Source: Raillietiella orientalis
Lineage: Eukaryota
DNA: 64,000 nt
Reading direction: 5' to 3'
Assembly (NCBI GenBank): GCA_036172245.1
Contig: JAYWIR010000011.1
Coordinates: 1,054,001-1,118,000, forward strand
Positions 1 to 53,965 of this stretch are shown here, in pieces. Position 1 is the first letter of the stretch; every line of letters begins with the position of its first letter. Under the pieces are notes generated by a model that was given only the letters and a program-made list of their open reading frames with translations, did not search any database and had not been told where the DNA came from. A program made the translations under genes and the position numbers.

Positions 1-633
1 TTCCCAAAGTGGGCGATACCGCCCCCTGGTGGGCTCTGGAACGATTCAGGTGGGGGCGATAGTAGTCTCAACTAGGGGACGTTGAATAAAAATGGGGGAG
101 GGGGACGGTGAAAGAATAAAGAAAAAGGAGATGAGAAAATTTTTAAAAAAAACGTTCGTGTAAGTTTCATTTGTTGTGTACCGTGGGAAGTCGTAGCTAG
201 GTTAGGTACTTTGTTTCCCAAATAAACACACAAAATGCAAGTTGTAATCGATCCGCGGTCAAGTCTGCCGACGGGTCTCATCAAGCAAGTGTCTGCAGAC
301 GAGCGTGTCACGCATTTTTTGTGTACAATTCGACGCTATTCATAGGCGAAATTATGAAATCAAATTCAGATTGCTTCTGTACTGTGTGAGAAGCAGTTAA
401 AAAGAGTGCAAACGCATTAGTTTTTAAAATAGATCTAATAAAAACGCGAGTTACACGTGAGTATATAATATGTACTCACGTCGTAGATAGAAATATAGAT
501 ACATAAAATAACGCAAATTTGTCACTGCATCTTTCTGTTTGTTCATTTGGAAAAGGTACATTTTCGGGGGTGGTGCTGAGTAATTTTCTATCTGAAAAAG
601 GGGCGGTAGGCCAAATAATTTTGGCAACCTGTG
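1..633. mobile_element. Non-autonomous hAT (Charlie-like) MITE, left end cut by window edge
   Basis: Inverted termini: TTCCCAAA (1-8) vs TTTGGCAACCTGTG (620-633). Subterminal TACCGCCCC (17-25) vs GGGGCGGTA (600-608). AT-rich non-coding interior. Confidence 0.65.
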
Positions 634-1099
634 CCGTAAAGGATCGACCCAGAGCAATATCGATGCCTGCGATTCTCAGACTACGCTCTCTGCTCGTCGC
701 GGGACATCACGGACTGTCCATGGAAGACCCCTCGGGCACGGAACACCCCACTTGCAGCCACGCTCAGCACAATCCAACAAAGTGGAAATACCCATGGCCC
801 TGCGACATGGGAAGTATCCTGAGAGATCGCAGGAAAAAAGAGAAACAGCTAGGATGCTGGATGGCACGTCAACTGGCTGATGCATGCACGCACCCGCCGC
901 CCTCCCCAAATGAATTCTTCGCTTTGTGGAACTCCTGAACAATCCTCCTGGAGAGGCAGGAATACCCCCAGTGTTTGTGAACAGCTCCAGGCTTCCCCTA
1001 AAGTAGCAGGTCTCGGCATTGCAGTTATTGCAATGGACGATCCCATGCAACGCACGAGTCCATCACTAGACAAGAGAGAGTGCAGCCCCACTTGCGAAG

Positions 1100-1355
1100 A
1101 ACGGAAAACCCTTCCGCATTTGCCTTGGATCTTCGTTGTTTTTCGTTCAGGCTTTTTTCGGGGGTTCTAGATATCTCAGGAATCACTGGGCGCCTGGCAG
1201 TTCACGCTGCTCTTTGATGCTGTTCCACGCCACTCGAGGGTGCACGCAGCTCTTCAAGATAGGAGGTACCCCAGGAGGGAACCACCCTATGAATCCAGGA
1301 GAAGAGAGTCCTGTTCCTCTCACGCCTGGGGAGTGATCCTTGAAGGGAACCTCCG
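1100..1355 (-). mobile_element. Fragment of the tRNA-derived SINE family
   Basis: Contains the reverse complement of the family core (CCCTATGAATCCAGGA..GAGTCC..TTCCTCTCACGCCTGGGG) seen in the full-length copies at 18.7 and 50 kb. Confidence 0.7.
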
Positions 1356-1359
1356 CCAT

Positions 1360-50030: not shown

Positions 50031-51074
50031 GCCCGCGTCGGAGGCCTTGTGGTTAAGGCTTCCGCGTGTGGCACCATGCGTCGCGGGTTCGAATACTTCG
50101 GCAGAAACTCTGACGCCACTGCGTTGTCGAGTTCCGAGTTTCTCCTGCAATGGCGCTGGTTGGCCGAGACATTCGGGCGTGGCACCGGAGGTGGATTAAG
50201 CCGGAGGCCCCCGATGAAGGCCGGGACAATGGGAGTCGACCTTCGGGTCCTCTCAGGAATCAAGGAGTGGGGAGTTTCCCCTCCTGTCCTGCAACGGAGA
50301 GCGGACCCTTCCCCACCGGGGGACCCTCCGAGTCGTCGCCTCTTCACAGAGTGCACAAGGAAGCGAGAGCGATTTCCTGCGGGAAGCTGCAGCGCCCCTT
50401 CTGAATTTCGGAAGCGTCCCTTCGGGATTCTCTTCAGAGGAGTGAACAAGGAGCGGTTCCCTTGCGGGTTCCCTCCGGAGAAGAAATTCCTACAAGCGGA
50501 TCCTTTCCGGGTTCCCTTCGGAGAAGTTGAAATGAAGTTGAAATGGAGAGGACAGCCCCTCCCCATTGGTGGGGGGGTGTCCCTCCGGAGAGAATGAGGA
50601 AGGAGATTCCCTTCGGGGTTCCCCTTCGGAGACAACCAGGGTGGGAGATGCGATCCCCCCGTCCGGGGTGATCCCTCCCCAAGAGTGAGAGGAACGGACT
50701 CCGAGCCCTTCCTGGATTCATAGGGCGGACCCCCATCCCGGGGTGCCCCCTATCCTGAAGAATTACACTGAAGATTACACGCCCCCCTGCGGGTTGCCGC
50801 GGGCAGAGGGGCGGAGAAACAAAATAGTGTGTTTAATGTTTAAAAAAAAAGAGCCATGTGCGCCGCGAGGCACGCGACCGGCTCTTGAGGTACTTAGAGA
50901 ACCAAAAAAAAGAAAACTCTTGTAAAAAAAAAAAAAAAAAGCTGAAAGAAAGCGAATAAGAACAGCAAAGTCAGAAGAAAAAGAAGAACCCAAGGATTTC
51001 CATCGTCCTAAGCCAATAGTAACGATCTCCTCGTGGGAGTTGCTACGGGCGTTTTGAAAAAAAATAAAAATAAA
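50031..51074 (+). mobile_element. Full-length tRNA-derived SINE inserted in the L EVE
   Basis: A-box GTGGTTAAGG, B-box GGTTCGAATAC and an A-rich tail. Highly similar to 18680-19755. Degenerate target-site duplication ending TAGGGTCG (49996-50003 / 51085-51092). Confidence 0.9.
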
Positions 51075-51092
51075 GGAGGATGAATAGGGTCG

Positions 51093-53600
51093 GAGCATTC
51101 AAAGACCGGAGGGTATCGAGAGGAGCGTTTCGCAAGAGAACCGTAAGCTTCTCGGATCTTCTCCCACTCGTGGTTTCCACTGGCGCCACCTTGCTCCTCA
51201 ACATATTTAATGCAGCCTAAAGCAGCACTAAAGTATTCGTGCGTCGTCAAGGGTCGCCAGCCGCCTTCTCTCCGACGACTTTTGCTCTCAGAATTCAGAA
51301 CCACATTTCCAATTCTATGTTGAATTCATTATCGAAGTCTCGCGCGCTTGTTTTCCTTAGGAATGGAATTCTCATTTCTCGTGACGACAAGAGAATTTCG
51401 ATTTTGCAGCAACAGTCGAGCATATCGGCACGAAGGGTGTGAAGGTTATCAGTAGGTCGATGAGGATTCCTCTGTTTGGCATAGATGCTGATATGCTCGT
51501 CAGAGGTTTCTGGAGCATCTGATATTCGCCTCCTCCAAGATCTGTGCATATTATCGCAATACCCCCTCCCCTCAAAAAAGGAAGACAAAAATCTCCAGTA
51601 CATGCTTAACAGCTTCCAGCAAATGGTTTACGCGTTTAACACTCCGATCGTGTTCAACGGTAGTAGGTGAAGGAGATGAAAGCGTAACAGCAATCACGTC
51701 TGCCCAATGTGCTGTGACCATTCATGAACACTCGTACGGTTGTACGAGCACGTGACCGAGCAAGAGAACTGCATCCGAGATCTGCTGGAAATTGCCACAG
51801 CAGAGCAAAAAAAACTAAGGCAGCTGGGAGGACGCGTTAGTTTTGCTAGCACTAGTCTACCGAGGACACTTCGAGGATACTCGGTCACTCCAGACATAGA
51901 TGTCATCAAAGTACACCAGAACGCTCGCTTCAAAGGGTGTTATCCGGAAGCATCTGCGCTGACACCACTTGCTCGGCCTATACAATATTCGCCTGCCAGG
52001 CAGAGACGCGTATCGCCCACCATCACACCCCGAGAATTGCGAACAACACGATGTGAAGCTTCTACCCAGTGTGTCCTGATGTATCTCTTCTGAAGTCATG
52101 CGATGTATTCTTTCCGGAAAACAAAAATGGAGTACCCCCGAGTGCTTGGAGCTTGGCTACGGGCACCTTCCACACTGGTGAAATCGTTTGTCCACAAGCC
52201 CGTATGACAGGTAGGTGACGTCTTCTCACCGTCACGTCACTTCATCGACGAAGCGCCAACTTCGCAGATGGGACTCCCCACGAAACGCAAGAGAAAGGTG
52301 GGAACTGCGTGCATACGCAGCTCAGCTTTCGCTGGTCACCGACTGGAAGAGGGGGTTCATTCTTCATTCGTGCGCCATGTGTGTGCGTGCAGAAGTCCAC
52401 GTTCCTCAGTCGGCGGCGCCTCCGGTGTTCCGGGCACGTTTCCATGCAAACGAACACCTCGGCAGATCTGCATCTGACGAACGGGTTGGAAGATGCAGTT
52501 GTGGAACGAACTCTCGGCACGTCTCACTCGATAATGAGCAGCGAGGCGTGTACAATTAGCAAGGTAAACTAAAAGCTTCTGGGCTACGCTTGCACGATGT
52601 TTTCATTCACTTCCGTGGCGCTTACCGCGGGGGGAGGGGGGAACGTCGAAACACAAAAGTCCTTTCGTTCCACTCCAAAAACACAATCATACAAACGAAT
52701 GACGCAAAGCAGATGTCCGGTTCAGTGATGCAGCAAATGGGCTACACGACGGGACGAAAACTCCTTCTGGGCACGTTCCTTGGCTGTGGAAGCAAATGTG
52801 GCATCGGGTCCGCGAGGGATGAGGCTGCCTCTGCCGGACCCAAACAGCCGAGATGGAAATTCGCGGATGAATAATTCGGGAGTCAAAAGCCTCCTGCCGA
52901 AAGACAAATTGCTCGATTCGATGGGTTGATAAGGTCTTAACCAAGCGGCTATGTTCTCCCCAGCAGTATCTCACAGAGAAGAGTGGCTAAAAAATCGCGA
53001 CTGCAGGAAGTCACGCATTTCCACTCTTCCTAAACGAATGCAAACACTCAGAGAATGAATGCACGGAACTTGCATCAAATAATGGGAAAAGTAATCTGAT
53101 ATTCTTTAAAATACATTTTCTTTCATGAAGATTAGCAATGTAGCACCTTCTCGTCCTTGATGGTTCGTCTCCTCTGATCGAAATGACCAGCCAAATCAAT
53201 AAACCTTTAGGGGATGCTGTGCACTCATCTCCCGTTCTTTACTACGATATGTGGACAACTGTGCTTTACAATTCTACCGCAGCATCCCTAGACGAATGCA
53301 TCCGAAGAATTATTCTTTTCTGCAAAGTTTGTAAGAAGCCGTTTCGAAAACTGAAATCAGCAATCATCAGCGAGACAAAAGAAGCAAACATATGCCACGA
53401 GTTGGTTGAAATGATCAATCTTTTCAGACCGAATTGAAGGATAAGAAAAAACTGGTCGTTGGTCCAGAGTTTACTTGAAAGGCGGGCATGATCCAGCACT
53501 GCAGAGCGATCAATCCTGGAGGACGAGGAAACTGCAACTTTCTACCACTAACGCACGTTCAAAGTCACAGAAAACAGTGGTAGCATCTGCAATTGTACCT
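51093..53600 (+). pseudogene. EVE: bunyavirus-type L polymerase, motifs B-D and C-terminal region, frameshifted
   Basis: SQENRKLLGSS~QGNLN..SS (motif B); VASRLLSDDF (motif C SDD, ~51270); VFLRNGILISRDDK~ACLTFGCQANMKK (motif D); RIPLFG..GASDIRLL; VIKVHQNARFKGCY..IQYS~VIFRYNSKRFKESL..ILFS. Confidence 0.65.
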
Positions 53601-53965
53601 TAGGTAATGAAGAACACACATAAACATGAATAAAAAAAAAAAAAAAAAAACGTCGGCCTGACATTAAAAAAAATCGTGAAAAACTGTAAATAGTATTTTT
53701 ATAAAAGAAACTTTATGTTAAATAACATCTTGAGAAAATCCTCTTCCAAACTATTCTGGAGATGAATCAGTGGATGCATTATGTGTTCAAAATTTTTATT
53801 CAAATGTCCAATAAATATAAAATTGAAGAAAACTGATTTACAAATATATCGTGTTTTCGTTTAATAACAAACCTCAAATATTAATTTGCATAACGTAATG
53901 AGCCTTCTTTTGTAGAAAAAAAAAAAAAATTACAACTTTTTATCCTGCTTCAATAATCGATTTTC

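Follow-up and report, generated by a model that had tools for sequence, protein, structure and literature searches.

A block of DNA of about 53 kb lies downstream of the TMEM222 gene of Raillietiella orientalis and contains, at 12151–22211, a stretch that we identify as the pseudogenised fossil of a Rickettsiaceae conjugative element. The window analysed here is the whole 64,000-nucleotide stretch from assembly GCA_036172245.1 (contig JAYWIR010000011.1, positions 1,054,001 to 1,118,000 of the forward strand), 64 kb without any N, in which TMEM222 occupies the minus strand and the block runs from position 1 to 53650, next to the 3′ end of the gene. A sequence-only reading of this window had taken the block for an archive of foreign DNA, with fragments of two virus groups, an endosymbiont and many transposons packed end to end, and had proposed it as an immune locus of the PIWI-interacting RNA (piRNA) cluster type. 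We consider it probable that the block is a neutral insertion graveyard that holds an old transfer of Rickettsiaceae DNA.

A Rickettsiaceae conjugative element fossil

The endosymbiont DNA of the sequence-only reading was recovered by homology. We compared the entire window by blastx with 6,862 Rickettsia open reading frames (ORFs), comprising those of 23 traG-bearing loci and those of one complete Rickettsia endosymbiont genome (2.03 Mb), the best-matching one, and every match fell inside 12151–22211. A period-3 test for coding sequence picked out 13.8–14.4 kb, within the same interval. There, the plus-strand ORF 13922–14353 (144 residues) was searched against 1.84 billion representative proteins and had six matches at E ≤ 0.001, the two best at 48% and 51% identity. 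The longest protein matched (P0002, 906 residues) carries the Pfam family TraG_N (E 5e-64), and an identical gene is present in a Rickettsia endosymbiont; the loci found through it are titled Rickettsia, Tisiphia, Rickettsiaceae or Orientia in 22 of 23 cases, the remaining one being titled 'Proteobacteria MAG'.

Two conjugation gene relics stand at the left end of the fossil (Table 1). The traH relic is 52–56% identical to the Rickettsia ORF L015:8615-9952, itself a TraH by Pfam (E 4.8e-69). The traG relic aligns with 10 full-length Rickettsia TraG proteins at 40–42% identity over 703–766 residues, and with one Tisiphia TraG at 39%. It directly follows traH, an order shared with the Rickettsia loci and with the Rickettsiales amplified genetic element (RAGE), described in the pertinent part of PMC10732058 as an integrative conjugative element that Rickettsia and Orientia carry. 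To the right of this pair the fossil holds at least five insertion sequence (IS) transposase relics, whose families, like those of the other relics, were assigned by Pfam searches of the matching Rickettsia ORFs. Homology is therefore found as a nuclear transfer of Rickettsiaceae (RAGE) DNA would leave it, restricted to the donor group and in the donor's gene order.

The same blastx comparison with 6,862 Rickettsia ORFs found no relic of any other tra gene, of an integrase or of a relaxase. The DNA of the IstB fragment had no match among plasmids and its ORF no relative in the genome collection, and a PDB search with the traG ORF 12822–13208 returned nothing useful. The best-matching endosymbiont genome is itself heavily RAGE-amplified, with eight traG matches, one of which has internal stops.

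Decay of the fossil and residence in host DNA

Symbiont reads often contaminate arthropod assemblies, and the GC content of the fossil (0.32) is that of Rickettsia, as it would be if the bacterial block were not nuclear DNA but had come from a living symbiont, through contamination or chimeric assembly. Stops and frameshifts, low identity and a host repeat inserted inside it nevertheless lead us to regard the block as a fossil, not a live symbiont. Every relic is disabled, with 17 stops in traG for example, and even the best-preserved ORF is at most 63% identical to any sampled Rickettsiales genome, 11 of the 401 sampled genomes of the order giving a match.

The inserted host repeat is a 1.08-kb copy of family A, which has other copies in the flanking host DNA. 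It sits within the fossil at 18678–19760, ends in poly(A) and is flanked by a candidate target-site duplication; the GC content is 0.35 on either side of it and jumps to 0.6 within it. A second, 159-base fragment of family A (21862–22020) splits the two halves of the IS5-type transposase relic.

Dinucleotide composition points the same way. The observed/expected CpG ratio (CpG o/e) of the traH–traG relic (12151–14862) is 0.14, with a TpG/CpA ratio of 1.28, as against 0.51 in the homologous Rickettsia region, a mean of 0.88 in the Rickettsia genome and 0.24 in the lowest 2-kb window of that genome. The flanking GC-rich repeats (22212–53000) have values of 0.86 for CpG o/e and 1.00 for TpG/CpA. 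The retroposon insert, the stops in traG and the depletion of CpG, all read from the sequence, indicate that the block is continuous with host DNA and has decayed since its transfer, and we regard a chimera or living-symbiont contamination as extremely improbable. Among the regions compared, only the bacterial fossil and the 3′ body of TMEM222 (53969–58204; CpG o/e 0.31) showed CpG loss. Germ-line methylation may have affected the fossil but not the repeats that surround it.

A sharp boundary at the 3′ end of TMEM222

TMEM222 itself proved to be as the sequence-only reading had placed it, in strand and in stop position. Its exon ORF 57437–57787 (minus strand) matches the Pfam family RTE1 (E 1.3e-21; 77.7 bits, the cut-off being 29.4), other exon-like minus-strand ORFs lie at 53969–54073, 54153–54284 and 58103–58204, and the stop codon is the TGA at 53968–53966. 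A canonical AATAAA follows 166 nt past this stop, and the sequence therefore gives no hint of read-through.

Composition and repeat content shift sharply at about 53.0–53.65 kb. The GC content is 0.51 at 52501–53000, then 0.41, then 0.30, and a plus-strand AATAAA followed by a 19-A run terminates exactly at 53650, some 316 bases from the TMEM222 stop. Within-window repeats make up 9,864 of the 53,650 bases (18.4%) to the left of this point and none of the 10,350 bases to the right, where no element was located. The earlier placement of the block end at 53650 thus agrees with our results, as does the statement that the gene is free of insertions. In the window, two classes of DNA can be told apart: a GC-rich class that takes up most of 1–12 kb and 22–53 kb (GC 0.45–0.62, CpG o/e 0.7–1.0), and an AT-rich, CpG-poor class at 12–18.5 kb and 54–58 kb (GC about 0.31, CpG o/e 0.0–0.5).

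The description of the block as packed end to end with invader fragments in nearly every stretch did not hold up. Within-window repeats, the hAT relic described below and the bacterial block account for only 19,957 of the 53,650 bases (37%). The mean period-3 chi-square was 6.6 against an expected 6, and six sliding windows reached p < 1e-3, three of them in the bacterial fossil. In the main GC-rich part (22212–53650) the period-3 test and the Pfam scans found neither coding periodicity nor a recognisable protein family, save for periodicity at 24.9–25.35 and 44.55–45.15 kb, the only places outside the fossil where it appeared.

The element nearest to the gene, at 52991–53650, has the look of a polyadenylated retrocopy's 3′ end, directed toward TMEM222, and is probably what had been called the nearest endogenous viral element, antisense to the gene. 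The antisense orientation stands; a viral homologue was not found. No target-site duplication of 10 bases or more was present within 40–53.6 kb. The retrocopy ORF 52991–53434 had no relative among proteins of 171–2000 amino acids, and the neighbouring ORF 51728–52090 none among proteins of 66–212 amino acids. The PDB gave no match to the retrocopy ORF alone, nor to the three plus-strand frames of 50901–53633 at E ≤ 1, and IMG/VR contained no relative of the ORFs nearest TMEM222.

Host mobile elements and repeats

Transposons had been reported as abundant in the block. This was borne out in part, by a hAT-like relic, by family A on both strands, by the bacterial IS relics and by low-copy repeats. 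The hAT relic spans approximately residues 42–390 of a 721-residue relative. Its ORF 10779–11186 (plus strand) is placed by Atlas beside clusters of DUF4371/FAM200-ZBED5 proteins, at 0.90; it matches the proteins P0007 and P0008 (PF14291 and/or PF27073) with 65% identity (E 4e-28), and KIAA1586-like proteins of the scorpion Centruroides vittatus with 54–56% identity. It is from this relic that the host genome looks arachnid-like. The assignment to hAT is thus by homology to DUF4371/FAM200-ZBED5 RNase-like proteins; Pfam gave nothing at E ≤ 1 on the ORF itself, and a PDB search with it nothing useful.

Family A is a non-coding poly(A) retroposon family found in 10 places, six on the plus strand and four on the minus strand. 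The two near-full copies (18678–19760 and 50029–51080) are 87% identical. The 10 copies, the tails of two of them and the candidate duplication on one copy are the features of a short interspersed nuclear element (SINE)-like retroposon, that is, one lacking long terminal repeats (LTRs). No Pfam family appeared in family A in the ORF scans and no codon-phase bias between its copies. Over the block, mismatches were biased by codon phase in 0 of 9 repeat pairs, and the block repeats appear to be non-coding.

A tRNA-like head of family A, suggested by a T-arm seen by eye, found no support: ARAGORN counted 0 tRNA genes in the window, an Rfam scan of all 64 kb yielded nothing at gathering score, and no tRNA, 5S or 7SL Rfam match was obtained at E ≤ 1 in 49900–51200. 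A direct duplication of 527 bases has its copies 3 kb apart with a family A fragment enclosed; as LTRs these copies were discarded, having no TG...CA ends. A second repeat family of about 300 bases has four copies (22675–22977, 28479–28796, 33019–33383 and 47224–47531), all in the GC-rich part, with 65–78% identity between copies and one of the four inverted. A mariner-like ORF noted by eye at 46960–47187 (minus strand) found no support in Pfam at E ≤ 1 or in the PDB, and Atlas gave no usable match for ORF 47953–48378 (minus strand).

Search for viral fragments

The two virus groups of the sequence-only reading were not reproduced, as no viral family or homologue emerged from the Pfam, homologue, PDB or IMG/VR searches. 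Among all 245 ORFs of at least 90 amino acids, Pfam at E ≤ 0.01 reported only IstB, RTE1 and a sub-threshold Nse4, and among all 267 ORFs of 62–89 amino acids one sub-threshold Amidase. None of the 150 most protein-like ORFs of at least 50 amino acids outside the bacterial block had a viral or transposon-related family at E ≤ 1; 17 of them had weak, scattered matches, all below cut-off. Six read-through frames of 47001–53650 showed no family at E ≤ 0.1, and a reverse transcriptase-like motif seen by eye at 51860–52156 (minus strand) received no support. The more powerful homologue searches covered five ORFs.

How far these negatives reach was gauged with eight control relics, known from other evidence and having Pfam-bearing relatives. 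The Pfam read-through scan recovered two of them (IS256 and IstB), and the viral negative is therefore weak: similarity to a viral protein, by which an endogenous viral element would be recognised, was looked for with low sensitivity and was not found. The block might hold endogenous viral elements that escaped detection through their decay or their distance from catalogued families. The sequence-only reading was right about TMEM222, its stop, the endosymbiont DNA and the end of the block; six of eight relics known otherwise escaped Pfam; long ORFs exceed their number in shuffled sequence; and the polyadenylated segment at 52991–53650 is built as a retro-copied mRNA would be. Against this, no viral family was seen in 512 ORFs of at least 62 amino acids or in the 150 ORFs searched at E ≤ 1, a search of 5.8 billion proteins, in the length bands covered, gave no relative of the ORFs nearest TMEM222, nor did IMG/VR or the PDB (three read-through frames of 50.9–53.63 kb, E ≤ 1), and coding periodicity outside the fossil is confined to the two short stretches given above. 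On balance, such hidden viral elements seem possible but rather doubtful.

Neutral accumulation or a piRNA cluster

We favour the following course of events. A gene-poor spacer downstream of TMEM222 would have gathered insertions passively. Roughly 10 kb of Rickettsiaceae DNA would have moved to the nucleus long ago, from an IS-rich source region that included the traH–traG end of a RAGE-type element, and would then have decayed to pseudogenes, lost CpG and received a host retroposon. Around it would have collected a hAT-type gene, now dead, poly(A) retroposon pieces on both strands, low-copy repeats and the polyadenylated retrocopy that abuts the 3′ end of the gene. The pieces that we identified are decayed, and none lies in the gene. 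Since DNA without genes can tolerate insertions, we infer neutral accumulation rather than a dedicated trapping locus.

Several points weigh against this explanation. The other 63% of the block has no assignment, and its nature is therefore inferred from composition only. Given the recovery of two relics in eight, undetected viral or transposon fragments in the block are quite possible. ORFs of at least 120 amino acids occur at two to three times their frequency in dinucleotide shuffles of 1-kb blocks (26 against 7.7 ± 2.7 in 1–12 kb, and 85 against 40.9 ± 5.8 in 22.5–53.6 kb), an excess that could hide coding relics that went unrecognised and may equally reflect patchy GC content. The sharp stop of insertions at the 3′ end of the gene fits a neutral origin and a piRNA cluster alike, and neutral accumulation and piRNA production are not mutually exclusive. 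The long ORFs of 1–12000 and 22500–53600 often overlap across strands, and they show no coding periodicity.

As a piRNA-cluster-type locus, the block would give rise to a long precursor transcript, possibly when transcription of TMEM222 reads through, and would yield small RNAs against the archived invaders. The block, which is free of genes and reaches to the 3′ end of one, does bring fragments of several kinds of invader together, and on both strands. Toward the gene, the last three copies of family A (43.5–51.1 kb) and the terminal retrocopy share the plus strand, antisense to a minus-strand read-through transcript, and the plus-strand AT skew, positive inside the gene, stays so (0.06–0.12) over 46–54 kb. 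However, family A favours neither strand when the whole block is considered, the viral fragments were not reproduced, and the canonical AATAAA stands shortly past the TMEM222 stop. Uni-strand Drosophila clusters of the flamenco type are transcribed from one side near a flanking gene and hold transposon fragments mostly in one orientation. The idea of one-sided transcription from a flanking gene is shared with that type, whereas the orientation of a uni-strand cluster is not seen here, with family A at six plus to four minus and the bacterial relics on both strands. Aedes piRNA clusters reportedly hold viral integrations.

The tick Ixodes scapularis offers a quantitative comparison. In the part of PMC6580184 that bears on the question, predicted piRNA clusters contain 32 of the 143 viral integrations, as the piRNA reading would lead one to expect, and these clusters number 1,774 and total 8.13 Mb, or 0.46% of the genome. 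From these totals we compute a mean cluster length of about 4.6 kb. The small genome share and the short clusters give a low prior for a cluster of 53 kb, and we judge a piRNA-cluster-type locus unlikely. The tick clusters with viral integrations, as this part of PMC6580184 presents them, resemble the block in being gene-free, in mixing mobile fragments and in using both strands; the block differs in being about 10 times the mean predicted length, in having a bacterial fossil as its largest identified part, and in yielding no viral fragment to the searches made.

A more specific variant would make the block a working piRNA cluster with captured endosymbiont mobile DNA (conjugation genes and IS) as well as transposons, its small RNAs being directed against the bacterial mobile element or its transcripts and the CpG loss of the fossil marking a transcribed, methylated unit within the cluster. 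We hold this to be highly unlikely. A search of the literature for piRNA clusters combined with bacterial transfers found nothing on point, by which the existence of such work is not denied. If small RNAs did come from the locus, its importance would be much greater, since the notion of an archive of invaders, so far one of viruses and transposons, would then take in bacterial mobile DNA as well.

Comparison with known transfers

Among the known fossil transfers from endosymbionts to arthropod nuclei, the present fossil may be compared with the Wolbachia inserts of Drosophila ananassae. As these are characterised in the relevant part of PMC4299567, both cases involve a multi-kilobase piece of an intracellular alphaproteobacterium that is non-functional in host DNA and lies among repeats. 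Unlike in D. ananassae (same part of PMC4299567), the donor here belongs to the Rickettsiaceae, and the piece consists of the donor's mobile DNA, conjugation genes together with IS. At about 41% protein identity it is also far more decayed than the recent Wolbachia inserts treated there (PMC4299567, in part).

With RAGE, so far as the pertinent part of PMC10732058 portrays it, the fossil has in common traH followed by traG, with transposase genes around them. Its closest relatives are multi-copy traG genes of IS-rich Rickettsia endosymbionts. Unlike the element outlined in that part of PMC10732058, only the C-terminus of traH and traG survive here, and they do so in a eukaryotic genome. If the neutral explanation is true, the locus would be a clean, datable example of DNA transfer from Rickettsiaceae to a host, comprising a conjugative element and IS, and would be useful for the history of the symbiosis and for telling nuclear fossils from symbiont contamination in assemblies.

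Table 1. Features of the 64-kb window (positions within the window)
Feature	Position	Strand	Details
Left part of block	1–12150		GC 0.49, mixed; CpG o/e 0.83, undepleted; within-window repeats 11.6%
hAT-superfamily (KIAA1586/ZBED5-like; DUF4371, PF27073) transposase relic	10161–11355	+	tblastn; frameshifted
Rickettsiaceae DNA fossil	12151–22211	both	GC of left part 0.32; every gene relic disabled
traH relic, C-terminal (residues ~282–446)	12151–12626	+	4 stops, 1 frameshift
traG (F-type conjugation) relic	12690–14862	+	17 in-frame stops, at least 3 frameshifts
Rickettsia leucine-rich repeat protein C-terminus, short relic	15977–16148	−	blastx
DUF772 / DDE_Tnp_1 IS transposase relic	16313–16759	+	6 stops
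IS256-type (Mutator family) transposase relic	17314–17841	−	blastx; Pfam Transposase_mut in its own read-through frame, E 2.6e-13
Relic of Rickettsia ORF without Pfam family	18157–18459	−	43% identity over 111 residues
Family A copy in bacterial fossil	18678–19760	+	19-A tail; 8-base candidate target-site duplication
Second DUF772 / DDE_Tnp_1 transposase relic	20062–20582	−	blastx; Pfam of Rickettsia ORF
IS21 IstB helper ATPase relic, C-terminal	21197–21544	−	Pfam IstB_IS21, E 2.7e-8; blastx to Rickettsia IstB ORF at 21248–21544
IS5-type transposase relic	21653–22211	+	HTH_Tnp_4 at 21653–21781; DDE_Tnp_4 at 22020–22211
Main GC-rich block part	22212–53650		GC 0.53; CpG o/e 0.86; within-window repeats 23.2%
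Unit with 527-base direct duplication	41211–44703	+	copies 41211–41737 and 44178–44703, 97.3% identical
Second near-full family A copy	50024–51080	+	A-rich tail
Retrocopy-like 3′ end, antisense to TMEM222	52991–53650	+	interrupted ORF 52991–53434, then AATAAA and 19 A
TMEM222 stop and first AATAAA of 3′ untranslated region	53795–53968	−	TGA 53968–53966; AATAAA 53800–53795
TMEM222 3′ exons and introns	53966–58204	−	GC 0.32; CpG o/e 0.31

Other features of the window

Two sub-threshold Pfam matches in the block, Amidase at 46050–46259 (E 6.7e-4) and Nse4 at 49032–49424 (E 0.006), were set aside, being under the Pfam cut-off and unmatched in the Rickettsia genome. An AT-rich patch at 35501–37000 (GC 0.26–0.41 in 500-base steps) has no Rickettsia match and, with a CpG o/e of 1.15, is undepleted in CpG, unlike the other AT-rich stretches. 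At the other end of the window, the region of the TMEM222 5′ end (62001–64000) is CpG-rich, with GC 0.56–0.66 and long ORFs on both strands, one of which (63533–64000, plus strand) runs past the window end. A neighbouring divergent gene beside the 5′ end of TMEM222 is possible.

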